DNA of 31,005 bases, from the IMG/VR virus record IMGVR_UViG_2671180986_000015; one strand, given 5' to 3'. Both the position numbers and the translations under genes were made by a program. Of this stretch, positions 1-31,005 are shown in pieces (the first letter of the stretch is position 1; each line of letters starts with the position of its first letter). The notes beneath the pieces were generated by a model that did not search any database, had not been told where the DNA came from, and saw only the letters and a program-made list of their open reading frames with translations. This stretch comes from a virus. Its lineage: Duplodnaviria > Heunggongvirae > Uroviricota > Caudoviricetes.

Positions 1-564
1 TTATGCGCTGGCTGCTTTCTGAGGTAGATTTAAGTGATCGCCCTTAGCTTCGGACAACGCGTAAATCTCTCTAACCTTTTCGTCTGGCAAATTACCAAGG
101 CTTAACGCTATGGCTCTACGAACTCCAACTAGAGCGTGCAACTCTTGGATGTGCTCATCCAGAAGAATGAGTAATTGCTCCGCTCCTTTTCTCCCAAGAA
201 CATCAGCTACTTGTTGTTTTTCTTGTGGTTTAAGAAATGACAAGAACATTAGAATTTGAGCATCAACATTATCCGCATTCTCTTTTTTGGGTTCTTTGGA
301 ATCTTTTAGTTCAACATCACCCTCTCCCGTCATGAGCCATTCCAAGGTAACATTTTCGCTTTCTGCTATCTTTTTTAACTGATGCGGGCGTGGTATCGGT
401 GCGTAATCCCGCCTGTTGTAATAATTTTTTAAAGTGCCTTCATTGATCCCCCATGCCCGAGCAGCCGCATTTCTTGAAGGGTATCGTTCTACTAACCTAA
501 AGATTCTTTCGATAATCGGTTCTTTTCCATCGGCAGGAAAAGAACCTTGGGGTGCTTTTCTCAT
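1..564 (-). CDS. Phage repressor (at the Mu c position), HTH N-terminal region plus leucine-rich C-terminal region
   Basis: Minus-strand ORF ending with TAA at 1-3. Start placed at the internal ATG (564-562) which has an AAGGA Shine-Dalgarno about 8 nt upstream; the track start at 621 lies in AT-rich DNA with no RBS. HTH-like segment NAAARAWGINEGTLKNYY. Divergent from ner across an operator-like spacer, as for c/ner in Mu. Product assignment is positional plus motif, not searched. Confidence 0.6.
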   Translation of the reverse strand: MRKAPQGSFPADGKEPIIERIFRLVERYPSRNAAARAWGINEGTLKNYYNRRDYAPIPRPHQLKKIAESENVTLEWLMTGEGDVELKDSKEPKKENADNVDAQILMFLSFLKPQEKQQVADVLGRKGAEQLLILLDEHIQELHALVGVRRAIALSLGNLPDEKVREIYALSEAKGDHLNLPQKAASA

Positions 565-677
565 TCTTGGTTCCTTTCTATCTAATTCATTGATAAATAA
601 TGAAATTAAAAAATAAACCATAAAAACACCAAAGAACCCTTTACAAGGAATCTTTGGTATCTTAATCTTTATCCATA

Positions 678-699
678 CGGATATCCGACCGGATATCCG
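678..699. promoter_or_regulatory. Two tandem copies of the perfect 10-bp palindrome CGGATATCCG (678-687 and 690-699), candidate operator sites
   Basis: Read directly: cggatatccg ac cggatatccg, lying between the divergent repressor and ner genes where Mu-like phages carry the repressor/Ner operators and the early promoter. Confidence 0.4.
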
Positions 700-728
700 C
701 GCGGGTAATTTTGTAGGTTAAAGGAAAG

Positions 729-980
729 ATGAGACAAAGAGAAGATAGTGACCGCGATTGGCCTTCGCTGAAGATTCAGCTGGCGCTCAAAGATAACGGG
801 TGGTCTTCCTTCCGGGAGCTTTCACTCCATGCTGGTTATGCTCAGGATTCACTGAAAGCGGTAGTTCGCACACCAAACAAAAAATACGAACGCGTAATTT
901 CTGACGCTATAGGTGTACCGCCAGAAATCATCTGGCCCAGCCGGTATCGTAACGATGGATTTATCAGGAAGGTGTCGTGA
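729..980 (+). CDS. ner: Ner-family DNA-binding protein (Ner/Nlp)
   Basis: 83-aa ORF immediately left of the transposase; contains RDW near the N-terminus and the IWPSRY motif that I recall from Mu Ner; AAGGA upstream of the ATG. Confidence 0.8.
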   Translation: MRQREDSDRDWPSLKIQLALKDNGWSSFRELSLHAGYAQDSLKAVVRTPNKKYERVISDAIGVPPEIIWPSRYRNDGFIRKVS

Positions 981-981
981 T

Positions 982-3078
982 ATGCAGTCGTACGTTACCG
1001 TAAATGACCTGCTCGGCGTACCAGGAATGCCAGCCACCACAAAAGGCATCCGACAGGCGTTACAGCGTTTTTCTCGTGATCTTGGTGACGTTAGTCGCCG
1101 TCGGGAAGGCACAAAAGCCATTGAGTACCACATTGATTGTCTGCCTGAAATAACACGAAAGGCACTGCGTGAACGCTATGTGGAACAGCTGGTGGCTACA
1201 GAGAACAATGTTTCTGAAGTGAAAGCTGTTACCAGAAAAACACGCAATCCTGACGCTGTCCAGGCAATCGAAGCATATCGCGGTTCTCCACAACTGATGG
1301 AAGAACGCCTGAATGCGCTGACCGAAAACCAGCGCCGGGTATCTGAAGCAAGAGCTGCGCTGGTGGTGGAAGTGCTGAAGCTGGAAAGCGCCGGTAACCT
1401 CGGGCGACTGAAAGCCATTAACTTTCTTGTTGAAAAAGCCCGTAAAGGTGAGCTGCCGGAGCGCCTGCAACAGGCCGCAGTTAACGCCAATGCAAAACGT
1501 GGCGCTAATCGTACTATCAGCCGCGATCCACTTTACCAGTGGGTTCTGAAATACAACCAGTCGCAGAACGCCGCCGAACGGCTGCTGTTACTGGCACCGG
1601 GAAAACGCGACGAAATAAAACCGGAAGAAATCAGCTGGCTGCCTGAATTTCTGGCGCAGTATCGGCAGGTGAACGGCAGACCCATGTCAGAAGCCTACGA
1701 GGATTTTGTCGCAGAATGGCAGCGTCGCCATGCGGACGAACCGTACATGCTGGAGGTGATGCCTTCCTATGATGTTGTCCGGTATGCCATGAAAAAACTG
1801 CCGGAAGTGGTGAGACAAAAAGGGCGCGTTACCGGCAGTGAATACCGTCAGCTTGAAGGATTCACCCGCCGCGACTGGACAGCTATGCCGGTGAATTATG
1901 TCTGGATTGGTGACGGTCACGGTATGAAGCTGAAATGTGCGCATCCGATCCACGGGCGTCCATTCTCACCGGAAGTCACGTTTGTGATCGATGGTGGAAC
2001 ACGGTTTGTTGTTGGCTGGAGTCTTGACCTTGCCGAAAACGTGTTCGCCGTTGCCGGTGCGATACAGCACGGCATTCGCAACCACGGAAAACCGTTCCTG
2101 TATTACTCGGATAACGGTTCCGGTGAAACGGCTGACATGCTGGACAAAGAGGTCGTGGGTATTCTGCCACGCCTGGGGATTAAACACCCTACCGGTATTG
2201 CCGGTAATCCACAGGGACGCGGCATTATTGAACGCCTGAACCGGACACTGCCGATGCGTATAGCCAGGAGGTATCGCACCTATTTTGGCAAGGGTGCTGA
2301 CCGGGAATCGTTGCGTGTACTTAACCGTGATCTGCGTTCAGCGTTTAACGCCCTGCAACAGGACAAGCCTCTGAACGACCGCCAGAAAGCGGCAATGCGC
2401 GAGCTGCCATCGTGGGCGGAGCTTATTGAGGCTATTCGTGAAGGCGTGGAATGGTACAACAACCGCCCGCATTCTGAGCTGCCGATGAAACCGAACGGAC
2501 GGCATTACAGCCCGACAGAGTTCAGAAAAAAACGCCTGGCAGAAGAAGACACCGAAATTGAGTGGCTGAGTGATCTTGAGCTGCGCGACATGTTCCGCCC
2601 AATGGTGGAACGACCGGTAAGACGCTGCGAAATTCAGTGGCTGAACAATATTTACTACGCGCCGGAGTTGCGTGACGAACACGGTCGCAAAGTGCTTATC
2701 AGTTATGACATTCATGACGCCGAGCGAATTACGGTACGTCGCAAGGACGGCAGCTTTATCTGTGAGGCGATATGGAACGGCAATAAACGCGCAGCCTTTG
2801 CTGTCAGTGCTGAATATCACAAACAACAGCAGCGTATTAAAGGAATGCGCAAACGCGCTGAGGAAAAAATTCGTGATGCTGAAGATGAAGGTATTCAGAT
2901 TCTGGAACACAAACAGGCTGAACCCTGGCTGAGTAATGTTTATCGCCCGGTTGGTAATGTGGTGGCAGTTCAGCAACCGGAATATGAAGAAGAGCATGAC
3001 GAAGAATTTGAACGCGATTTCCGGCTGGGGATGCAAAAACTTTTTGCCATGCAGGAAGAAGATGATCCGCTGGCCTGA
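982..3078 (+). CDS. A: Mu-type DDE transposase (MuA-like)
   Basis: 698 aa from ATG 982 (MQSYVTVNDLLGVPGMP, winged-helix-like N-terminus); the track start at 913 would overlap ner. Large multi-domain protein with central catalytic-core-like region (WIGDGHG ... YYSDNGSG ... GRGIIERLNRTL), placed between ner and a AAA+ ATPase as in Mu. Confidence 0.88.
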   Translation: MQSYVTVNDLLGVPGMPATTKGIRQALQRFSRDLGDVSRRREGTKAIEYHIDCLPEITRKALRERYVEQLVATENNVSEVKAVTRKTRNPDAVQAIEAYRGSPQLMEERLNALTENQRRVSEARAALVVEVLKLESAGNLGRLKAINFLVEKARKGELPERLQQAAVNANAKRGANRTISRDPLYQWVLKYNQSQNAAERLLLLAPGKRDEIKPEEISWLPEFLAQYRQVNGRPMSEAYEDFVAEWQRRHADEPYMLEVMPSYDVVRYAMKKLPEVVRQKGRVTGSEYRQLEGFTRRDWTAMPVNYVWIGDGHGMKLKCAHPIHGRPFSPEVTFVIDGGTRFVVGWSLDLAENVFAVAGAIQHGIRNHGKPFLYYSDNGSGETADMLDKEVVGILPRLGIKHPTGIAGNPQGRGIIERLNRTLPMRIARRYRTYFGKGADRESLRVLNRDLRSAFNALQQDKPLNDRQKAAMRELPSWAELIEAIREGVEWYNNRPHSELPMKPNGRHYSPTEFRKKRLAEEDTEIEWLSDLELRDMFRPMVERPVRRCEIQWLNNIYYAPELRDEHGRKVLISYDIHDAERITVRRKDGSFICEAIWNGNKRAAFAVSAEYHKQQQRIKGMRKRAEEKIRDAEDEGIQILEHKQAEPWLSNVYRPVGNVVAVQQPEYEEEHDEEFERDFRLGMQKLFAMQEEDDPLA

Positions 3079-3110
3079 ATAAAAAAACAGTCCGCGGGAA
3101 CGGACTGTTA

Positions 3111-3151
3111 NNNNNNNNNNNNNNNNNNNNNNNNNNNNNNNNNNNNNNNNN
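3111..3151. other. N-masked run (41 nt) in the A-B intergenic region
   Basis: Literal n characters. Confidence 1.
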
Positions 3152-3178
3152 CTGATTTGAAATAACCGAGGAAATACT

Positions 3179-4162
3179 ATGACTGATATTGATGATGTTT
3201 TCAACACTATTAACGCTTTGATTAACGAGGGCGACAAGTCTCAGGAAGATANNNNNNNNNNNNNNNNNNNNNNNNNNNAAGATATTGCTGATGAAGCCGG
3301 AATGTCTCCGGCAACACTCTCGGCTCTGCGTAAAGGAGAGTACAACGGTAATGTCGAAGGTATGCATGACAAATTACAGAAATGGTATCAGGTCTGGCAG
3401 AAGGGACAGAACTTGTCAGGTACCCCTGGTGTTGTGAAGACCCAGACATTTTGTGATTTGCATGAGCTGTTTAAAACAGTGCGCTCACTCGGGATTATCA
3501 GTGTCGTTGTTGGCGTACCGGGTGTCGGAAAAACCTTTGCTGCCCGGGAATATTGTCGCAGGACAGCTAATGCCTGGATGGTGACTCTTGCTCCGGCACA
3601 TTCGAGCGTAACGGAATGCCTCCTTGAAATAGCATATGCGCTGGAAATTAATAATCCGGGAAGAAATAAGGGGAATATAACCCGCGCCATTCGCAGAAAA
3701 CTGGGTGGTGGTAAAGAAACCAGTGGCCGTGTTAACCCCCTTCTGATTATTGATGAAGCTGATCACTTAAGTGTGGATGGTCTGGAGCAATTACGCGCCA
3801 TTCAGGATGCCACTGGCGTGGGGATGGTTTTAATTGGCAACCCGAAACAGATGGCGGATGCCACCCGTCGTGGGACTGATGAACTGGCCCGTCTGTTCAG
3901 CCGTTTTGCCATGACAAAACAACTGCGCAAAGTAAAAAAGACCGATGTGATGGCTGTAGCCAAAGCATGGGGAGTAACACAGGAAGATGAGCTGGACCTG
4001 CTGATGAGGGTAGCCGAAAAGCCCGGGGGATTGCGTGTATTAACTCACACACTGAATCATGCGTGGCTGGCGGCAAAAGGTGCAGGCACATCCCTGAATA
4101 AAAGTCACATTAAAGCGGCTTTTAAGGAGGCTTACAGCAACCCCAGGTTACTGAACTGGTAG
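3179..4162 (+). CDS. B: MuB-like AAA+ ATPase (transposition target DNA activator)
   Basis: Walker A GVPGVGKT and Walker B LLIIDEADHL; GAGG RBS before ATG 3179; directly downstream of the transposase. Interrupted by a 27-nt N-run (3252-3278). Confidence 0.85.
   Translation: MTDIDDVFNTINALINEGDKSQEDXXXXXXXXXXDIADEAGMSPATLSALRKGEYNGNVEGMHDKLQKWYQVWQKGQNLSGTPGVVKTQTFCDLHELFKTVRSLGIISVVVGVPGVGKTFAAREYCRRTANAWMVTLAPAHSSVTECLLEIAYALEINNPGRNKGNITRAIRRKLGGGKETSGRVNPLLIIDEADHLSVDGLEQLRAIQDATGVGMVLIGNPKQMADATRRGTDELARLFSRFAMTKQLRKVKKTDVMAVAKAWGVTQEDELDLLMRVAEKPGGLRVLTHTLNHAWLAAKGAGTSLNKSHIKAAFKEAYSNPRLLNW
3252..3278. other. N-masked run (27 nt) inside B
   Basis: Literal n characters. Confidence 1.
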
Positions 4163-4177
4163 TAAAGGACATAAACC

Positions 4178-4405
4178 ATGATGTCACGAAATATAAAAAT
4201 GGCAACGGATGCGCAGAACTGGTTACAGGCGCACGGGAGTCACGTAAATGAATCATATCTCGGCGTGGCGCGTCCGGTACTTGAAATCACCTGCCCACCA
4301 CCGGAGCTGGTCAGAAACGCCGTCAGGATTATGGAGCATAAATCAGGGGTTGCCCGTTCAGTATGGACGGCCCGCCTTAATGGCTGCCAGATTATCTGGC
4401 GTTAA
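4178..4405 (+). CDS. Hypothetical small early protein (75 aa) at the position kil occupies in Mu
   Basis: ATG 4178 with AAGGA 8 nt upstream; first gene after B. Function not recognisable from sequence. Confidence 0.5.
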
Positions 4406-4437
4406 TAACGGCTTATTTATTTGTGAGGAATAACAAA

Positions 4438-4701
4438 ATGGCAAAAGTAATTATTGAAATTAAAAATACAGTATCTGGAATTAAAGGACTGAATTTGCGC
4501 ACCAGCATTGCGGTGGACGGTAGTGCGGAACTGGACGGTGATGAGGGTACACTTGCTGGCATGGTGGCGTTACTGGTGCTTAATAAAAGCCAGAAAATAA
4601 TTAATGAGTCAGCCCATGAAGCTATCGAGATTTTGAAAAACGATAGTGTCATCACCGGTGGCCGTGTCACTGAAATGGCTGTTGAAAAAACATGCCACTG
4701 A
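4438..4701 (+). CDS. Hypothetical early protein (87 aa)
   Basis: ATG 4438 with GAGGAA 7 nt upstream; AT-rich coding region; no recognisable motif. Confidence 0.5.
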   Translation: MAKVIIEIKNTVSGIKGLNLRTSIAVDGSAELDGDEGTLAGMVALLVLNKSQKIINESAHEAIEILKNDSVITGGRVTEMAVEKTCH

Positions 4702-4715
4702 AAGGAACGCTGACA

Positions 4716-5135
4716 ATGAACGTCAAAATCCGAAATGAAATCCGGGCATTAATTCGGATTAAAGAGCGTAATAACAATGGTGGAGACTTGCGCGAATTTA
4801 TTTGTGCGCGCGAAGTTGAGGGGTATGGCGAAAAGACTTACCTGATTGCATTTGACCATTACAGCATTTGTGCGCGTTATTGCGGAGAGGCGGTATTCCG
4901 CGCCATTACGTTTGGCAATGCCTTCAATGTGGATTTATGGGAATACGTCATGGACCGCGAATACATCTGCGCGTCAGACCCGAAAGCCCGTGAAATGTGG
5001 CAGCGTATCTGGCGCGATTACCGGTTAATGGCAAAAGGCTGGGCGCGCTGCTGTTATTCCTCGCTTGTCCTGAAAGCGGTTCAGTTATCGCTGCGGCATA
5101 TTCCGGCATCACTGCGCGAGCCTCTGTTGTACTGA
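4716..5135 (+). CDS. Hypothetical early protein, cysteine-containing (139 aa)
   Basis: ATG 4716 with AAAGGA 9 nt upstream, start 15 nt after the previous stop. Several Cys residues (CAREVEGYG, SICARYCGE, YICASD, ARCCYSS), possible metal-binding; no family recognised. Confidence 0.5.
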   Translation: MNVKIRNEIRALIRIKERNNNGGDLREFICAREVEGYGEKTYLIAFDHYSICARYCGEAVFRAITFGNAFNVDLWEYVMDREYICASDPKAREMWQRIWRDYRLMAKGWARCCYSSLVLKAVQLSLRHIPASLREPLLY

Positions 5136-5147
5136 GTGGTGACCGGA

Positions 5148-5435
5148 ATGACGTGTAATCGTAAACGCTGGTCACGCGAAGACCGGGAATTTATCGAAGC
5201 CAGTGTCGGAAAAATGACCGTCGAGGAAATGGCGAAAAAACTGAAAGTTGCCCCAACCGCCCTACAGGCACATGCCAGAAGGCACGGAATATCGTTGTGT
5301 GCATACCAGGTCAGTGAGCACGACAAATATTTATGCCGTGAACTTTATAAAGAAGGGCTGGCTATTCATGTGATAGCCCAAAAGATGGAATTAAGCAATC
5401 GTGCTGTATCCGGCATTGTATACAGTGAATATTAA
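5148..5435 (+). CDS. Hypothetical early protein with two HTH-like segments (95 aa)
   Basis: ATG 5148 (GTG 5136 is an alternative); segments MTVEEMAKKLKVAPTALQAHARRHGIS and LAIHVIAQKMELSNRAVSGIV look like helix-turn-helix motifs. Weak RBS. Confidence 0.45.
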   Translation: MTCNRKRWSREDREFIEASVGKMTVEEMAKKLKVAPTALQAHARRHGISLCAYQVSEHDKYLCRELYKEGLAIHVIAQKMELSNRAVSGIVYSEY

Positions 5436-5453
5436 TTAACAGGAGCTTTATTT

Positions 5454-5978
5454 ATGGCTAAACCCGCAAAACGAATCAGGAACGCCGCAGCGGCTTATGT
5501 TCCGCAATCCCGCGATGCCGTGGTATGTGATATCCGCCGGATTGGGGACCTGCAACGCGAAGCAGCACGACTTGAAACGGAAATGAATGACGCTATCGCT
5601 GAGATTACGGAGAAATACGCCTCACAGATTGCACCGCTTAAAACCAGTATCGAAACCCTTTCAAAAGGCGTTCAGGGATGGTGTGAAGCGAACCGTGACG
5701 AACTGACGAACGGCGGCAAGGTGAAGACGGCAAACCTGGTAACCGGTGATGTGTCATGGCGTCAGCGCCCACCATCAGTAAGTATTCGCGGTGTGGATGC
5801 GGTGATGGAAACACTGGAGCGTCTTGGCCTTCAACGCTTTATTCGCACGAAACAGGAAATCAACAAGGAAGCGATTTTACTGGAGCCGAAAGCAGTCGCA
5901 GGTGTCGCCGGAATTACAGTTAAATCAGGCATTGAAGATTTTTCTATTATTCCGTTTGAACAGGATGCCGGTATTTAA
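5454..5978 (+). CDS. gam: Host-nuclease inhibitor Gam (Mu Gam family, Ku-like DNA end binding)
   Basis: 174 aa MAKPAKRIRNAAAAYVPQ...SGIEDFSIIPFEQDAGI; about 90 percent identical to the Mu Gam sequence as I recall it. Identity estimate is from memory, not an alignment. Confidence 0.93.
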   Translation: MAKPAKRIRNAAAAYVPQSRDAVVCDIRRIGDLQREAARLETEMNDAIAEITEKYASQIAPLKTSIETLSKGVQGWCEANRDELTNGGKVKTANLVTGDVSWRQRPPSVSIRGVDAVMETLERLGLQRFIRTKQEINKEAILLEPKAVAGVAGITVKSGIEDFSIIPFEQDAGI

Positions 5979-6075
5979 TACCACGACGAATATTTAATTA
6001 ATTCACTTTCTTTTAATTATGGCGCGATGCGTCAGGGGATTGCTCGCGCCTGAATCAGGACCAGAGGAAATGAAT

Positions 6076-6624
6076 ATGAAAGCATATGCTTATTTTAAAC
6101 TGAGTGACGCAGCCGCTAACGGTTATACGATTCGCTGGCTGAAAGATGTTTCTGTTAAGCGTGACAAAATCATCTGCTCATTGCAGCGTGCGTTTGGCGC
6201 AGACGGTGTTTCCCTTGTCAGTAACAGAGGGTATGAACGGGTTGAATGTATCTGGATGAATCAATTAGCGCCGGAATTATGGCGTGGTAAATCAGACGGA
6301 CTGTTTATTGGTGGATTTCAGTTTTATGGCGTTGTACCGGATATAACAACACCGGAAGGCCGAAACAATGCGACGCTTATTCAGGAACATGAAGAGCAAC
6401 TCCGGAAATATCCCACATTCCCGGTCTGGTTGTGTAATGAACTCGGGGTTGATGTTGTACCCAACATGTTTGATCTCAAATCAGTCTGGACGATGCACCA
6501 CAGCCGTGACGGATTCGGCATTTTGTTTGAGGTGTGCCTGCTGGATGGTGAGGTTAAGGGACCGGTTCCTGCCGAATGCCAGCGCATTAAACATTCTGAA
6601 TTTGTGGCACTGACGGAGGAATAA
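6076..6624 (+). CDS. Hypothetical early protein (182 aa)
   Basis: ATG 6076 has GAGGA 7 nt upstream; ATG 6070 is an alternative. No family recognised. Confidence 0.55.
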   Translation: MKAYAYFKLSDAAANGYTIRWLKDVSVKRDKIICSLQRAFGADGVSLVSNRGYERVECIWMNQLAPELWRGKSDGLFIGGFQFYGVVPDITTPEGRNNATLIQEHEEQLRKYPTFPVWLCNELGVDVVPNMFDLKSVWTMHHSRDGFGILFEVCLLDGEVKGPVPAECQRIKHSEFVALTEE

Positions 6625-6627
6625 CCG

Positions 6628-7167
6628 GTGATTGATGCAAAAGTTCTGAACGGTGTCAGCACATTATTACGGGCTTACGGACGTCTGACCTGTGGTGTTC
6701 TGGCGGACAAAATGAGGATGCCGGTCTCTGCAATGGTGTATTTCCTGCGTGATGCGGTTGATGCCGGAGTGCTGACTGAACTGAACGGCTTTTACGACGT
6801 TCCGCGCTCCCGGGCAGAGCCGCCTGCCGGGCGAAATTCAACGGAGCACCCCGATGTTGATGGTGCGCAATGGTGCACGTTCCGCCGCTCTTTGCCCTGG
6901 CTGGAAGGCAATGCCATTCCGGCACTGGCAAAAGAATTTGCGACAGGCGTACTGACCTGCGAGTCGGTTTACATCGTTGCTGAAGTGGATGACGAGATGT
7001 GTAAACAGGGAATGCCCCGTTTTGTGATGGCTTATATCGATATCCGGCTGGGTCGTTTTATTTGTGGCTCCAGTGGCTGGAATATCACCGACCACGTCCT
7101 GCGCTATCTCATTCTTGATTATTCACCGGTTCCGGCGGAAACACAGGAAATCAGCGAGCATGATTAA
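6628..7167 (+). CDS. Hypothetical early protein (179 aa)
   Basis: GTG 6628 start with GGAGGA 7 nt upstream, 3 nt after the previous stop. No family recognised. Confidence 0.55.
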   Translation: MIDAKVLNGVSTLLRAYGRLTCGVLADKMRMPVSAMVYFLRDAVDAGVLTELNGFYDVPRSRAEPPAGRNSTEHPDVDGAQWCTFRRSLPWLEGNAIPALAKEFATGVLTCESVYIVAEVDDEMCKQGMPRFVMAYIDIRLGRFICGSSGWNITDHVLRYLILDYSPVPAETQEISEHD

Positions 7168-7335
7168 GTCAACTGGCTTTGTCCTGCTGGTTGGCACCTG
7201 CGGAAATGATGCCTGCGATGCCATTCCGGTAACGGAAAAAAATCTGGCCCACAGAGCAGACATGTATGCAGGTGATGGAGCGCATACAAAAACGTTATCC
7301 CAATGAAATCTTTTATTGCGAAGAGGTATTACGAA

Positions 7336-7650
7336 ATGAATAAACCAGAGAATAAAGAAATGAAATTCACACCAGTTAATATTGATGACGTCATGGCTAA
7401 TTTAAGGATGCTGGAACGTATGCATGATATTGTTAAATATGGTATTGAGCATGACCTCACCGCCAGAGAAGTCCGGAGCATTATCAACCGTGAAATGAAC
7501 CAGGTGGAAGCTGCCGTGGCGCTACAAAATGAAGCAGCCCGCGAGGAATACATTCGTCGCAGGCTGGGACTATCAAATAAAGATATTCTTACGGATGCTC
7601 AGATGGCTGAGGCTTTTGATATTCATCAGAATCTTGGTCTAACAAACTGA
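7336..7650 (+). CDS. Hypothetical protein (104 aa) in an AT-rich segment
   Basis: ATG 7336 with AGAGG 9 nt upstream; the 5-prime half is about 30 percent GC against about 55 percent for the window. Charged, helical-looking product. Confidence 0.5.
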   Translation: MNKPENKEMKFTPVNIDDVMANLRMLERMHDIVKYGIEHDLTAREVRSIINREMNQVEAAVALQNEAAREEYIRRRLGLSNKDILTDAQMAEAFDIHQNLGLTN

Positions 7651-7855
7651 TGGTATCAGTGATTAGCTGTGATATTTGCAGGATGGGATTATTCGTTGTT
7701 CTCAATGCCGGAGCCTCTGCCGCTCCGCTTGCTGCGGCTTCGAGGATCGTTTTGCCTTCTTCTGCGGTAATTAGCCCCTTTCTGACAAGGAGTATCAGCA
7801 ACCTTGAGGCAATGACATACCCTGCAACATCATAAGGCTGTTCACTGTTTTTCAT
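7589..7855 (-). CDS. Hypothetical minus-strand small protein (88 aa), convergent with and overlapping the 3-prime end of 7336..7650
   Basis: Reverse-strand ATG at 7855-7853 preceded by AGAGGA with a 7-nt spacer. Product MKNSEQPYDVAGYVIASRLLILLVRKGLITAEEGKTILEAAASG... Codon usage is mediocre and a competing + strand ORF (7650..7835) exists, so the call is tentative. Confidence 0.35.
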   Translation of the reverse strand: MKNSEQPYDVAGYVIASRLLILLVRKGLITAEEGKTILEAAASGAAEAPALRTTNNPILQISQLITDTISLLDQDSDEYQKPQPSEHP

Positions 7856-7928
7856 AAAAAGTTTCCTCTGTTTAGTGAGTGGATTCTGGCGGTGTTGCCG
7901 CACCGCCCCCTTTTCTGGAGGTACGATA

Positions 7929-8480
7929 ATGAATCGCACATCCCTGATTAAATTAATTCATGTCGCCCGTCGTGATCTACAACTCGACGATGACACTTAC
8001 CGCGCCTTTCTGGTGCAGCACACGGGCAAAACCAGTTGCCGCGAGCTGTCCGTTGCACAACTGGAACGTGTGCTCGATGCCATGAAAGAGCGCGGTTTTA
8101 AGAAGCAGAAAAAACATCCCCGCCGTCGCTTTAAGGGGCATGTCACACCGCGCGAGAAGATTTATAAAATCTGGCAGCAGATGTTCCTTGATGGTTTCGT
8201 CTCCGATATCAGCGACGCTGCGCTGGACAAATACGTTGAACGCCTGACGGCCAGACGTAATGGCGGTCAGGGTGTTTCCACGCTGGCCTGGTGTCACGGG
8301 GAATCGTTGCATGTTGTGCTCGAAACGCTCAAACAGTGGCATATGCGCTGCATCCGGGAAGCCTTTGCCCGACATGGTGTGCCTTTACCTGTGAGCGAAA
8401 CCGGGCGGAAGCTGCGCGGCTATGATGCACTGACCAGTGCATATGCCCGCGCACGAAACAGCGGGAGAATTGCTGTATGA
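7929..8480 (+). CDS. gemA: GemA-like protein (Mu gp16 family)
   Basis: ATG 7929 with GGAGG 7 nt upstream (MNRTSLIKLIHVARRDLQLDDDTYRAF...); N-terminal motif and position immediately upstream of mor match Mu gemA as I recall it. Confidence 0.65.
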   Translation: MNRTSLIKLIHVARRDLQLDDDTYRAFLVQHTGKTSCRELSVAQLERVLDAMKERGFKKQKKHPRRRFKGHVTPREKIYKIWQQMFLDGFVSDISDAALDKYVERLTARRNGGQGVSTLAWCHGESLHVVLETLKQWHMRCIREAFARHGVPLPVSETGRKLRGYDALTSAYARARNSGRIAV

Positions 8481-11887: not shown

Positions 11888-12798
11888 NNNNNNNNNNNNN
11901 NNNNNNNNNNNNNNNNNNNNNNNNNNNNNNNNNNNNNNNNNNNNNNNNNNNNNNNNNNNNNNNNNNNNNNNNNNNNNNNNNNNNNNNNNNNNNNNNNNNN
12001 NNNNNNNNNNNNNNNNNNNNNNNNNNNNNNNNNNNNNNNNNNNNNNNNNNNNNNNNNNNNNNNNNNNNNNNNNNNNNNNNNNNNNNNNNNNNNNNNNNNN
12101 NNNNNNNNNNNNNNNNNNNNNNNNNNNNNNNNNNNNNNNNNNNNNNNNNNNNNNNNNNNNNNNNNNNNNNNNNNNNNNNNNNNNNNNNNNNNNNNNNNNN
12201 NNNNNNNNNNNNNNNNNNNNNNNNNNNNNNNNNNNNNNNNNNNNNNNNNNNNNNNNNNNNNNNNNNNNNNNNNNNNNNNNNNNNNNNNNNNNNNNNNNNN
12301 NNNNNNNNNNNNNNNNNNNNNNNNNNNNNNNNNNNNNNNNNNNNNNNNNNNNNNNNNNNNNNNNNNNNNNNNNNNNNNNNNNNNNNNNNNNNNNNNNNNN
12401 NNNNNNNNNNNNNNNNNNNNNNNNNNNNNNNNNNNNNNNNNNNNNNNNNNNNNNNNNNNNNNNNNNNNNNNNNNNNNNNNNNNNNNNNNNNNNNNNNNNN
12501 NNNNNNNNNNNNNNNNNNNNNNNNNNNNNNNNNNNNNNNNNNNNNNNNNNNNNNNNNNNNNNNNNNNNNNNNNNNNNNNNNNNNNNNNNNNNNNNNNNNN
12601 NNNNNNNNNNNNNNNNNNNNNNNNNNNNNNNNNNNNNNNNNNNNNNNNNNNNNNNNNNNNNNNNNNNNNNNNNNNNNNNNNNNNNNNNNNNNNNNNNNNN
12701 NNNNNNNNNNNNNNNNNNNNNNNNNNNNNNNNNNNNNNNNNNNNNNNNNNNNNNNNNNNNNNNNNNNNNNNNNNNNNNNNNNNNNNNNNNNNNNNNNN
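11888..12798. other. N-masked run (911 nt)
   Basis: Literal n characters; hides the end of the gp27-like gene and the start of the large terminase. Confidence 1.
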
Positions 12799-14043: not shown

Positions 14044-14159
14044 NNNNNNNNNNNNNNNNNNNNNNNNNNNNNNNNNNNNNNNNNNNNNNNNNNNNNNNNN
14101 NNNNNNNNNNNNNNNNNNNNNNNNNNNNNNNNNNNNNNNNNNNNNNNNNNNNNNNNNNN
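14044..14159. other. N-masked run (116 nt)
   Basis: Literal n characters. Confidence 1.
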
Positions 14160-14234: not shown

Positions 14235-15845
14235 GTGNNNNNNNNNNNNNNNNNNNNNNNNNNNNNNNNNNNNNNNNNNNNNNNNNNNNNNNNNNNNNNN
14301 NNNNNNNNNNNNNNNNNNNNNNNNNNNNNNNNNNNNNNNNNNNNNNNNNNNNNNNNNNNNNNNNNNNNNNNNNNNNNNNNNNNNNNNNNNNNNNNNNNNN
14401 NNNNNNNNNNNNNNNNNNNNNNNNNNNNNNNNNNNNNNNNNNNNNNNNNNNNNNNNNNNNNNNNNNNNNNNNNNNNNNNNNNNNNNNNNNNNNNNNNNNN
14501 NNNNNNNNNNNNNNNNNNNNNNNNNNNNNNNNNNNNNNNNNNNNNNNNNNNNNNNNNNNNNNNNNNNNNNNNNNNNNNNNNNNNNNNNNNGGTGGCCGCC
14601 AGTGATGACGATGCCGACGTGCAGCTGGCGGACGCCATCCGTGCGCTGATGGAAGCCCCGCAAATCCCCGAACTGATGTTTGATTTGCTCGACGGGCTGG
14701 GAAAAGGCGTGGCGGTCTGTGAAATCCTGTGGGACACCCGCAACAACCACTGGATGCCCCGTGATTATGAGTGGGTTGATCCCCGTTTTCTGAAAGCCGA
14801 AAAGCCCACGCTGCGCCAGTTCCGCCTGCTGACGGACGATGAACCGGTGGATGGCGTACCGCTGACACCGGGAAAATTCATTGTTCACCAGCCGCGTCTG
14901 AAATCCGGTCTGCCGCTGCGTAACGGTCTGGCCCGTCTGGTGGCTGTGATGTACATGCTGAAATCCTTTACCGTGCGCGACTGGTGGGCATTTGCGGAAA
15001 AATTCGGCATTCCGGTTACGGTGGGGAAATACGGTCCCAACGCCACGGAGGAGCAAATCCGCGTGCTGATTGATGCGATTGCCTCCATTGCCTCGGATGC
15101 CGGGTGTGCCATTCCGCAGTCCATGCAACTGGAGATGCAGGAAACCGCCAGCCGGAATAACGGCGGCGCACTGTTCCGTGAAATGGCGGAATGGTGCGAT
15201 GCGCAAATCAGTAAGGCTGTGCTGGGGCAGACCATGACCACGGATAACGGCAGTTCGCGTTCACAGGCGGACGTGCACAATCAGGTGCGCATGGACATTG
15301 TGCGCTGGGACGCGCGACAGCTGGCTAACACGCTGAATGAATATCTGGTGCGGCCCTACATCGAGGCCAACTACGGGCCACAGGCGCACTACCCCCGTGT
15401 TGTTCTGCGTATCAGTGAAGCCGAAGATCTGAAGGCGCTGACGGATGCTCTGGTGCCGCTGATTGACCGGGGGATGCGGGTTCAGGAATCGGAGCTGCGG
15501 GACCGGTTCGGCCTGGCTGAGCCAGACGAAGGGGCTGATGTTCTGCATCCGGTTTCCGCCGGGATGCCGGGTGATATGGCGATGAACCGCGAGCGCGTCG
15601 CCCTGAACAGGGAACACCCCGACGAACTGGCACAGATGGTGGATGATGCCCTGCGTGACTGGCAGAAAACCGGCGAGGCGTTCACGAACCCGGTGCTGAC
15701 ACTGGCGCAGGAGTGCGACAGTTTTGATGACTTTCTGAAACGCCTGCCTGAGCTTCAGGAAACGCTGAACGCGGACGACTTTGCCCTGCAACTGGCGGAG
15801 GTGTGCTTTAAGGCGCGTGCGCTGGGAGACACTGCTCATGCGTGA
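14235..15845 (+). CDS. Portal protein (Mu gp29-like)
   Basis: GTG 14235 preceded by GAGGGAGG; long ORF whose visible part is 14591-15845; its stop overlaps the start of the F-like gene. The 5-prime end and frame are uncertain because of the masked run at 14238-14590. Confidence 0.75.
   Translation: MXXXXXXXXXXXXXXXXXXXXXXXXXXXXXXXXXXXXXXXXXXXXXXXXXXXXXXXXXXXXXXXXXXXXXXXXXXXXXXXXXXXXXXXXXXXXXXXXXXXXXXXXXXXXXXXXXXXXXXVAASDDDADVQLADAIRALMEAPQIPELMFDLLDGLGKGVAVCEILWDTRNNHWMPRDYEWVDPRFLKAEKPTLRQFRLLTDDEPVDGVPLTPGKFIVHQPRLKSGLPLRNGLARLVAVMYMLKSFTVRDWWAFAEKFGIPVTVGKYGPNATEEQIRVLIDAIASIASDAGCAIPQSMQLEMQETASRNNGGALFREMAEWCDAQISKAVLGQTMTTDNGSSRSQADVHNQVRMDIVRWDARQLANTLNEYLVRPYIEANYGPQAHYPRVVLRISEAEDLKALTDALVPLIDRGMRVQESELRDRFGLAEPDEGADVLHPVSAGMPGDMAMNRERVALNREHPDELAQMVDDALRDWQKTGEAFTNPVLTLAQECDSFDDFLKRLPELQETLNADDFALQLAEVCFKARALGDTAHA
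14238..14590. other. N-masked run (353 nt) inside the portal gene
   Basis: Literal n characters. Confidence 1.
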
Positions 15846-16206: not shown

Positions 16207-16450
16207 NNNNNNNNNNNNNNNNNNNNNNNNNNNNNNNNNNNNNNNNNNNNNNNNNNNNNNNNNNNNNNNNNNNNNNNNNNNNNNNNNNNNNNNNNNNNNN
16301 NNNNNNNNNNNNNNNNNNNNNNNNNNNNNNNNNNNNNNNNNNNNNNNNNNNNNNNNNNNNNNNNNNNNNNNNNNNNNNNNNNNNNNNNNNNNNNNNNNNN
16401 NNNNNNNNNNNNNNNNNNNNNNNNNNNNNNNNNNNNNNNNNNNNNNNNNN
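16207..16450. other. N-masked run (244 nt)
   Basis: Literal n characters. Confidence 1.
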
Positions 16451-16467
16451 ACCATTCACACCGAAGC

Positions 16468-16876
16468 NNNNNNNNNNNNNNNNNNNNNNNNNNNNNNNNN
16501 NNNNNNNNNNNNNNNNNNNNNNNNNNNNNNNNNNNNNNNNNNNNNNNNNNNNNNNNNNNNNNNNNNNNNNNNNNNNNNNNNNNNNNNNNNNNNNNNNNNN
16601 NNNNNNNNNNNNNNNNNNNNNNNNNNNNNNNNNNNNNNNNNNNNNNNNNNNNNNNNNNNNNNNNNNNNNNNNNNNNNNNNNNNNNNNNNNNNNNNNNNNN
16701 NNNNNNNNNNNNNNNNNNNNNNNNNNNNNNNNNNNNNNNNNNNNNNNNNNNNNNNNNNNNNNNNNNNNNNNNNNNNNNNNNNNNNNNNNNNNNNNNNNNN
16801 NNNNNNNNNNNNNNNNNNNNNNNNNNNNNNNNNNNNNNNNNNNNNNNNNNNNNNNNNNNNNNNNNNNNNNNNNNNN
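16468..16876. other. N-masked run (409 nt)
   Basis: Literal n characters; only a 17-nt island (16451-16467) separates it from the previous run. Confidence 1.
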
Positions 16877-16910: not shown

Positions 16911-17935
16911 ATGCAACCGGAACTGCTGGCGCTGTGTTTTTCCCTGCCAGAACCCATCCCTGAGCTGACACCCGCTCAACTGCCGGAATGGCTTGAACTC
17001 GTTCCTGCGGGTGAGTTCACCGGGCGCGATGGCCGGACGTGGATGAACCGCAATCCACATGAGGTGGTTGCCCGTTCGTCCGACATCAACATTCCGGTGG
17101 ACATTGAACATGCCACCGAAATTAAAGGCCCGCGGGGTGAAGAGGCTCCGGCGTATGGCTGGGTGGAAGCACTGCGGGTGACGGACAGCGGCACCATTGA
17201 AGGGCGTGTTGTCTGGAGTGAGTCCGCCCGGTGGATGCTGAGCGAGCGCCGCTACCGCTATTACAGCCCGGCGTTTTTCCATGACGCAGACGGTGCGGTG
17301 ACNNNNNNNNNNNNNNNNNNNNNNNNNNNNNNNNNNNNNNNNNNNNNNNNNNNNNNNNNNNNNNNNNNNNNNNNNNNNNNNNNNNNNNNNNNNNNNNNNN
17401 NNNNNNNNNNNNNNNNNNNNNNNNNNNNNNNNNNNNNNNNNNNNNNNNNNNNNNNNNNNNNNNNNNNNNNNNNNNNNNNNNNNNNNNNNNNNNNNNNNNN
17501 NNNNNNNNNNNNNNNNNNNNNNNNNNNNNNNNNNNNNNNNNNNNNNNNNNNNNNNNNNNNNNNNNNNNNNNNNNNNNNNNNNNNNNNNNNNNNNNNNNNN
17601 NNNNNNNNNNNNNNNNNNNNNNNNNNNNNNNNNNAGAAAAACGCCTTCAGCAACTGGAAGAGAAGGAAGCCGAGGCGCTTGTGGATGCGGCCATCGGGGC
17701 CGGAAAAGTCGCCCCGGCAAACCGTGACATGTTCCTTGCCACCTGCCGCACGGAAGAAGGCCGCAAACAGTTTGCGGAGTACACCAAAGGTGCACAGCCG
17801 CTGGTTAACAACGACAAGCCCAGCCAGGGCAAGGATAAACCCGCGCAGACACTGACCGATGCCGAACTGGCGATGTGTCGCAGCATGGGGATTACCGGGG
17901 AAGAGTTCCTCGCCGCTAAACCGAAACAGGAGTAA
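16911..17935 (+). CDS. Protease/scaffold protein, Mu I/Z-like
   Basis: ATG 16911 with GGAGA upstream. After the masked run the reading frame resumes (EKRLQQLEEKEAEALVDAAIGAGKV...) and ends at TAA 17933-17935, 7 nt before the major head gene. The frame relation across the gap is unknown. Confidence 0.7.
17303..17634. other. N-masked run (332 nt) inside the protease/scaffold gene
   Basis: Literal n characters. Confidence 1.
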
Positions 17936-30060: not shown

Positions 30061-31005
30061 ATGTTTTATGTGGATAACCCGACGGGTGTGCCGGTAATGC
30101 CACCTGTCGCGGCAGAATTAAGCAAAACAACGCTTTATTTCACCGAAGGCGGGAACGGTATTCCGCCCACCTATCCGGGGCCGGACTGGTTTAATATTAT
30201 TCAGTCTGAATTACTGGAAATACTCCGGCAGGCAAATATCAAACCGGATAAAAACACAACCAACCAGATTATGACGGCGCTGAAAAAGCTGTTTATTACG
30301 AACAGTGGTTCAGCCGGTGCTATTGCCGGATTAACCGGTCAGAATAATACATTCCCGTATTTTACCGGCAAAGACACAATGGCATTAACACCGCTCAGTG
30401 CTTTTGTGCGCGGTATTCTCGGCAAAGAGAGTGCAACAGATTTTGCAGATGCACTGAAAGTCATAAAACAATCAGGCGGCACGATGACAGGAGAGCTGAA
30501 AATCCGTGGTGTTAATGCGCTGAGGATTTTCAACGAAGCTTTTGGCCTGATTTTTCGTCGTTCGGAAGAGTGCCTGCACCTTATCCCTACCAGTGAAGGT
30601 CAGGGCGAGAATGGCGATATTGGCCCCCTGCGTCCGTTCACCATTAATCTGCGGACGGGTGAAATATCCATGTCGCATAAAGTGTCTGTTGGCGGTGGTT
30701 CGCAGGTCAATGGTGCGCTGGGTATCGGCGTTCAGAACGCCCTGGGGGGGAATTCAATTGTTCTTGGTGATAATGACACCGGATTCAAACAGAATGGTGA
30801 TGGCCTGCTGGATGTTTATGCCAATAGCGTGCATGTGTTGCGTTTTCAGAGTGGCAGTATCCAGAGTAATAAAGCTGTAAACGTTACAGGACGGGTAACA
30901 CCGTCAGACTACGGAAACTTTGATGCCCGTTACCAGCAGCGAAATGGTGGCGTGCAGGATGTGCGGTATGGTTATGAAATGTATTACACCCCCGGCAGTA
31001 ACACC
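30061..31005 (+). CDS. Tail fiber protein, 5-prime part (runs off the window end)
   Basis: ATG 30061, frame open for 315 codons to the window edge, so absent from the ORF track; Gly/Ser/Asn-rich stretch (SVGGGSQVNGALGIGVQNALGGNSIVLGDNDTGF) typical of fibre proteins. Confidence 0.7.
   Translation, partial: MFYVDNPTGVPVMPPVAAELSKTTLYFTEGGNGIPPTYPGPDWFNIIQSELLEILRQANIKPDKNTTNQIMTALKKLFITNSGSAGAIAGLTGQNNTFPYFTGKDTMALTPLSAFVRGILGKESATDFADALKVIKQSGGTMTGELKIRGVNALRIFNEAFGLIFRRSEECLHLIPTSEGQGENGDIGPLRPFTINLRTGEISMSHKVSVGGGSQVNGALGIGVQNALGGNSIVLGDNDTGFKQNGDGLLDVYANSVHVLRFQSGSIQSNKAVNVTGRVTPSDYGNFDARYQQRNGGVQDVRYGYEMYYTPGSNT

Follow-up and report, generated by a model that had tools for sequence, protein, structure and literature searches.

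Ner is a Cro-like early regulator of transposable phages, and some chromosomal regulators, such as Nlp/SfsB, EnrR and CdeR, belong to the same family. In phage Mu, the Ner operator is composed of 12-bp repeats with the consensus ANPyTAPuCTAAGT; the leftward promoter Pc starts inside the Ner site, and the repressor site O3 overlaps it. The GenBank record of Mu annotates the Ner-binding region from the start of the early promoter Pe to just before ner. In phage D108, the perfect repeats CCGTGAGCTAC-N8-GTAGCTCACGG (positions 996-1025 of that genome) end 24 bp before ner, and we take them to be the Ner site that was reportedly footprinted by Kukolj and coworkers in 1989. A structural view of the family is provided by EnrR of Edwardsiella (PDB 7F9H/7F9I), a monomer of which two copies pack on the short, continuous, TA-rich palindrome CTATAG (PMC9023278).

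The whole stretch of DNA analysed here, of 31,005 bp and hereafter called the window, carries a divergent pair of regulatory genes at its left end. The c-type repressor gene occupies 1..573 on the minus strand and encodes 190 aa from the ATG at 573. Its N-terminal HTH is CI-like, with a weak Pfam match to Phage_CI_repr (17.6 bits, below the cut-off), and the comparison of the repressor with Mu c gave no meaningful similarity. Because of this lack of similarity, and because the repressor has only this weak CI-type HTH match, the phage of the window is, judging from its sequence, almost certainly heteroimmune to Mu. On the plus strand, ner (729..980) encodes an 83-aa protein with the Pfam domain HTH_35 (E = 1e-13), which matches the structures of Mu Ner (PDB 1NEQ, E = 5.7e-7) and EnrR (7F9H, E = 6.4e-6) and is 35% identical to Mu Ner; it is the putative binder of the array described below. 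The MuA-like transposase gene (982-3078) comes after ner, and residues 10-133 of its product form the Mu DNA-binding domain, which the repressor lacks. A MuB-like gene (3179-4162) follows. Runs of N mask several segments (3111-3151, 3252-3278, 11888-12798, 14044-14159, 14238-14590, 16207-16450, 16468-16876 and 17303-17634), among them parts of the MuA-like gene, at its end, and of the MuB-like gene, at its start.

Prophages of E. coli FDAARGOS_943 and VL40 carry the region with 100% and 99.9% identity, respectively. Over the semi-essential early region (4178-8428 of the window), the identity to Mu, SfMu and Mu-like phages of Yersinia is 87-90%. The c-ner region, on the other hand, had no close match in the phage collection, where the best one was Pseudomonas phage VW-6B with 69.7% identity. 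Since the segment 4178-8428 is near Mu and SfMu and the c-ner-A segment is not, the window can be described as a relative of Mu whose immunity and transposase module is a different one, and these identities indicate that there is mosaicism between 1-4177 and 4178-8428.

In the spacer between the two regulatory genes, the 10-bp palindrome CGGATATCCG is present in two exact copies (678-687 and 690-699, without assigned strand), with AC between them at 688-689 and a 12-bp register; the sequence TATCCATACGGATA lies at 670-683. A previous sequence-only reading of this DNA had pointed to two identical perfect palindromes 2 bp apart and to a third, overlapping near-palindrome, all placed between the divergent repressor and ner, and this description proved correct in each of its parts. 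The palindromes belong to a larger array (668..709, no strand), composed of four half-sites, A to D, in the 12-bp register, which forms an imperfect dyad of about 40 bp centred at 688/689 and is a putative Ner operator. Half-site A (TTTATCC, 668..674, plus strand) adjoins the -10 hexamer of the early promoter, at about -7 to -1 of Pe, and forms the dyad TATCC-ATAC-GGATA (670-683) with unit B, which is the conserved core GGATATCC of the first palindrome (679-686). Unit C is the same core in the second palindrome (691-698) and forms the dyad TATCC-GCGC-GGGTA (694-707) with half-site D (GGGTAAT, 703..709, plus strand). The orientation of the half-sites alternates, and the array is equally readable as three overlapping TATCC-N4-GGATA dyads. 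In a repeat search, its arms were found at 669-687 and 690-708, with 19 nt each and 79% complementarity.

An exact search of the 31,005-bp window found the 10-mer at the two array positions only, and its copies are the sole identical pair among the 17 perfect 10-bp palindromes of the window. When the 155-bp intergenic region was shuffled 20,000 times, an identical pair of 10-bp palindromes at most 30 bp apart appeared 13 times; with the whole window shuffled 200 times, such a pair appeared three times. When one mismatch was allowed, TATCC-N4-GGATA matched the window at 670-683, 682-695 and 694-707 and at one other place (30237), against an expected number of 0.31. The latter, the sole match outside the array, has one mismatch and reads TATCAAACCGGATA (30237-30250). 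An unbiased scan of IMG/VR with the pattern GGATATCC-N4-GGATATCC returned 60 matches, of which four adjoin ner and the others are unrelated and mostly in coding sequence; with so few matches beside ner, the bare motif is not a general mobile element. A metagenome scan with the three-unit pattern returned 13 matches, six of them in known L004-type phages and seven chance-like, and revealed no new combinations.

Relatives of the locus were gathered by BLAST against phage and E. coli collections, by protein-guided scans of genome and viral contigs, and by a pattern scan of metagenomes. The last 90 bp of 32 distinct c-ner spacers were then aligned without gaps. Invariant columns in these 32 relatives were T668 and T670 in half-site A (with C674 near-invariant); G680, A681, C685 and C686 in unit B; T694, A695, C697 and C698 in unit C; and T706, A707 and A708 in half-site D. 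The spacers at 675-678, 687-689 and 699-701 vary. Half-site D is GGATAAC in most relatives and GGGTAAT in the window. Position 684 is T in the window and A or C in most relatives, and position 693 is A in the window and T in most of them. The search of relatives that had been suggested for the motif thus found the half-sites in all 32 loci but the perfect palindromes replaced in most of them, where unit B is GGATAACC and unit C is GGTTATCC, two mutual mirror images of which neither is self-palindromic. It follows that the dyad symmetry is conserved and not the perfect 10-bp palindrome: the self-palindromes are peculiar to one or two subgroups, whereas the dyad array of four half-sites is the conserved property. 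The alignment supports the view that the array is a real conserved element of the protein-binding type.

The early promoter Pe (640..668, plus strand) was revealed by phylogenetic footprinting as a sigma-70 type promoter with the -35 hexamer TTTACA (640-645), a 17-bp spacer and the -10 hexamer TAATCT (663-668). Its columns T640, A664 and T668 are invariant in the 32 relatives, the last two being positions 2 and 6 of the -10; the -35 is TTTACA in the window and TTGAyw in the relatives. Promoter prediction around 640-730, which had been proposed for this locus, gave a divided result. A scan of 400-1000 for promoters and terminators called none in the window, where Pe scores 8/12, but promoters were called at the homologous position in two relatives (TTGACA-17-TATTCT in L124 and TTGACA-17-TATGCT in L151). 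Pe is therefore recovered through its conservation and through the promoter calls in relatives. We infer a transcription start at about 675. The array opens with the final base of the Pe -10 hexamer and closes 20 bp before the ATG of ner (729), and with this start it would span about -7 to +34 of Pe.

For the opposite direction, no convincing conserved promoter of c was found among the relatives within the array or to its right. Three leftward candidates picked by eye, a -10 TAACCT at 720-715, the hexamer CAAAAT (713-708) with a -35 TTGTCT (737-732), and TTGTAA-18-TATGGT arranged back to back with Pe, were weak and not conserved across the relatives. The leader at 710-726 is conserved nearly like the half-sites. 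It reads TTTTTAGGATAG in most relatives and TTTTGTAGGTTAA in the window, with T711, T712, T714, A715, G716, T719 and A720 invariant. Candidate roles are a fifth half-site resembling GGATA, a -10 on the minus strand (TAnCCT) and a signal for translation.

The array and the D108 Ner operator have in common that they lie between the early promoter and ner, end about 20-25 bp before the ner ATG, are dyad-symmetric and adjoin the gene for a Ner-family HTH protein; by analogy, the expected role, repression of early and repressor transcription, would also be shared. They differ in build, since the D108 operator has two 11-bp inverted repeats with 8 bp between them and arms 19 bp apart from centre to centre, whereas in the window four half-sites follow one another every 12 bp, or three dyads of 14 bp overlap, and the sequence is unrelated (CCGTGAGCTAC versus GGATATCC). 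In addition, the D108 repressor is of the Mu/D108 type and that of the window has a CI-like HTH, and binding of Ner was shown for D108, whereas for the array of the window it is predicted from sequence comparison. In Mu, the position of the Ner site relative to Pe and ner is the same as that of the array, and Pe has the same -35 (TTTACA) and the same 17-bp spacer. The Ner proteins of Mu and of the window are homologous, but the repeats of their sites differ in sequence and arrangement, and Pc of Mu starts inside the Ner site, while in the window no leftward promoter was located. The array showed no sequence resemblance to the Ner sites of Mu or D108; the earlier remark that the motif differs from the Mu operator is borne out and applies to the D108 sequence as well. 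This is expected, because Ner of the window shares only 35% identity with that of Mu, and the Mu and D108 sites also differ from each other.

More distantly, the locus resembles lambda Cro/OR, in which a small early HTH protein acts on dyads that overlap the divergent or convergent promoters of the switch and turns off synthesis of the repressor. The operators of lambda are common to Cro and CI, whereas in the window, as in Mu, the two regulators apparently have separate families of sites. EnrR belongs to the Ner family, like Ner of the window, and its packing may serve as a model of how two Ner monomers would sit on each GGATATCC unit. Unlike the phage protein, EnrR is a chromosomal regulator associated with the nucleoid, and its AT-rich consensus is loose (PMC9023278). 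Its base-contacting residues Arg47 and Arg55 align with Asp40 and Thr48 of the window Ner, so the chemistry of recognition must differ.

Natural exchanges of modules among the relatives separate the array from the repressor. Between the window and L001, Ner is 98% identical and the array is identical from T669 to A708, whereas the repressors are 46% identical, with the helix INEGTLKNYY in the former and ININTLQSYF in the latter, and the inverted repeat at the -35 differs too. In L127 versus L129/L134, a swap found again in metagenomes for L127 and L129, and in L151 versus L152, Ner and the array are likewise shared while the repressor HTH and the -35 repeat differ. The viral contigs L177-L180 present one Ner, one array and the same downstream gene, but each of the four has its own repressor N-terminal domain and its own inverted repeat around a TTTACA -35; going by these sequences, this is a clear example of immunity-module exchange. 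The reverse swap was observed between L012 and L186, whose repressor HTHs are nearly the same, with 48% identity between the Ner proteins and with different arrays. In L194, the repressor has a C-terminal GDSM motif and, judged by eye from this motif, looks like the S24/LexA type; its Ner has a related helix (QDSLKTALRT), and GATAACC occurs twice upstream of ner.

Pairwise comparisons agree with these cases. Identity of the array correlated with that of Ner (Spearman rho 0.57), of the MuA N-terminus (0.48) and of the repressor HTH (0.24); for the -35 region, the corresponding values were 0.04, 0.25 and 0.46. The array is thus shown by these comparisons to be co-inherited with ner and not with the repressor, with the physical linkage of array and ner, 20 bp apart, as a confounding factor. 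The sequence-only reading had interpreted the palindromes as operators of the lysis-lysogeny switch and as a sign of a distinct repressor specificity, and hence of heteroimmunity. A conserved element in the switch region stands, but it covaries with ner and not with the repressor. The second part does not hold, as the identical array accompanies the 46%-identical repressor with a different HTH helix in L001; likewise, the motif had been expected to be kept with near-identical repressors, and the arrays of L012 and L186 differ.

A finer covariation was detected inside the array. It concerns residue 12 of Ner, encoded at 762-764 of the window. All 11 loci that have T684/A693 encode Pro there, and all 21 loci in which 684 is A or C and 693 is T encode His. 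Pro12 was seen in two Ner backgrounds sharing 54% identity, the second of which is 70-74% identical to His-type Ners. The residue of EnrR that aligns with this position, His20, contacts the DNA backbone in the crystal (PMC9023278). Apart from residue 12, the search for a simple code between the Ner recognition helix and the half-site variants gave nothing clean.

A second family of repeats covers the region to the left of the array. An inverted repeat flanks the -35 of Pe (620..666, no strand), with arms at 620-641 and 645-666 of 22 nt and 77% complementarity; it lies outside the array and is a candidate repressor operator. In the swap cases, its sequence switches with every change of repressor while ner and the array stay. 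Other candidate repressor sites are the GGTTCTTTT/AAAGAACC repeats (518..578, no strand), located at the 5' end of c and its ribosome-binding site: a perfect 11-nt inverted repeat is inside c (518-528/536-546), and further copies are at 551-560 and 569-578. Exact copies of AAAGAACC number four in the 31-kb window, all within 290-638, one of them at 290-297. In the relatives, the right half-site is GGTAyTTTT (GTGTTTTT in L011) with repressors of the '...TLxSYF' type and GKTTCTTTT in most of those of the '...TLxNYY' type. This covariation of the -35 repeat family with the repressor points to two separate site families, as in Mu, and the operators for immunity are more likely the AAAGAACC/GGTTCTTT repeats at 518-660 than the array.

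Two further features accompany these repeats. The inverted repeat at 518-546 is also coding sequence on the minus strand (GSFP..GKEP of the repressor) and encodes the conserved peptides GSF and KEP, whose conservation may be driven by the DNA sites instead of protein function. In the AT-rich segment between the start of c and the -35 inverted repeat, the minus-strand sequence TATCAATGAATTA (583-595) fits the IHF consensus WATCARNNNNTTR; in Mu, an IHF site lies between O1 and O2.

Three other roles were considered for the array. A function as operator of the c-type repressor, either the main one or a low-affinity third site like Mu O3, setting the specificity of immunity, appears quite improbable. 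The array is well placed for it, in the c-ner spacer with half-site A abutting the Pe -10, and O3 overlaps the Ner site in Mu; besides, the repressor HTHs of the closest relatives are 56-74% identical over 70 aa, and a shared secondary site is conceivable. However, one and the same array is found with repressors of 46% identity whose presumed recognition helices are INEGTLKNYY and ININTLQSYF, and with four repressors in L177-L180, whereas nearly the same repressor HTH goes with different arrays in L012 and L186. A separate repeat family (AAAGAACC/GGTTCTTT, or GGTAyTTTT with the 'SYF' repressors) lies around the -35 and covaries with the repressor, and array identity follows the repressor HTH with a rho of 0.24 against 0.57 for Ner. 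Very little credence can be given to a site for the N-terminal domain of MuA, that is, a transpositional enhancer, or for a host factor such as DnaA. The Mu transpositional enhancer overlaps the operators; in the window, MuA has the Mu DNA-binding domain and the repressor lacks it, and an enhancer need not coincide with the repressor operators. The correlation of array identity with the MuA N-terminus is moderate (rho 0.48), but between the window and L002, which have the inner units B and C in common and Ner proteins 84% identical, the MuA N-termini are only about 50% identical, and MuA of L002 is nearer to that of L142, whose array differs. As for DnaA, the 9-mer TTATCCATA at 669-677 is one mismatch away from the DnaA box consensus TTATCCACA, but its 3' positions (675-677) fall in a spacer that varies among the relatives, and the likeness is probably a coincidence of the TTATCC half-site. 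Closely spaced dyads are, moreover, typical of small HTH regulators.

The inverted repeats might also act in RNA, as a hairpin of the early leader or of the leftward c transcript with a role in attenuation, stability or translation. Units B and C would form a 9-bp stem, 675-735 folds with a minimum free energy of -14.9 kcal/mol, and the change from T684/A693 to A684/T693 keeps complementarity; in L151, a weak terminator-like call was obtained on the minus strand. This role is nevertheless highly improbable. The fold gave a z of -1.34, and 22 of 200 shuffled sequences fold equally well; the scan of 400-1000 called no terminator in the window; and the complementarity of B and C is broken in several relatives, for example those with GATACCC/AGTTATCC and GACAACC/GCTTATCC. 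Half-site A is as conserved as the rest yet lies upstream of the Pe start adopted here, and the full element is in neither transcript.

We consider it likely, from the comparisons above, that the array is a Ner operator which represses Pe and probably also leftward transcription of the repressor gene. Its tie to Ner is argued on the grounds that an operator, to remain functional, has to move together with the protein that reads it, and that the array demonstrably has no such tie to the repressor; Ner would then be the protein that binds it. In position, architecture and co-inheritance, the array appears as a Ner operator would; its sequence is new, and its layout of four half-sites with a 12-bp spacing differs from those of Mu and D108. 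Ner expressed from Pe would assemble on the array, being probably monomeric in solution and oligomerising on the DNA, by analogy with D108 Ner and EnrR. Bound from the -10 to about +34, it would occlude or block RNA polymerase at Pe, which corresponds to negative autoregulation of early transcription. Ner on the array would probably also stop the leftward transcription of the repressor, leading to lytic commitment as in Mu; we infer this control of c by analogy, with both the existence and the position of a leftward c promoter assumed from Mu.

The array may take up four monomers, with a single one on each half-site, or as many as six, if each self-palindromic unit holds two. A more detailed version of the Ner operator, speculative and rather unlikely to be right as a whole, joins several steps. 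Four to six Ner molecules would bind cooperatively on three overlapping dyads spaced by 12 bp, with two of them packed in the manner of EnrR on each GGATATCC. The change of His12 to Pro, near the start of helix 1, would retune the preference for the central base pair, from GATAACC/GGTTATCC to GATATCC/GGATATCC. The occupied array would work as a two-way roadblock between the early and repressor promoters, placed face to face, and Ner with the array, on one side, and the repressor with the -35 inverted repeat, on the other, would form independently exchangeable modules.

This analysis assigns, in concrete and testable terms, two operator families in a group of Mu-like prophages that is widespread and uncharacterised, with hosts in E. 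coli, Shigella, Serratia, Pantoea and Pseudomonas. The most conspicuous palindrome of the c-ner spacer would not be the determinant of immunity, which matters when superinfection immunity is predicted from sequence. In addition, the 32 distinct arrays, the module swaps and the covariation of Pro or His at residue 12 with the bases of the array form a data set for DNA recognition in the Ner family, which is poorly defined. The general picture of the Mu switch is unchanged, and the result would be expected in principle by a Mu specialist; what it adds is that two exchangeable regulatory modules are cleanly told apart.

The more distant ner genes (L186, L189, L053 and L177-L180) are preceded, at the same position, by other repeat or dyad arrays of about 40 bp, and the sequence of the array appears to change with the type of Ner. 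L186 has CTTASC units about 13 bp apart, some 80 nt upstream of ner; L189 has nested GTGTTAC/GCGCAA palindromes upstream of ner; and the array of L177-L180 reads ACCGATAAGC...GATTATCGG...GATAAAC.
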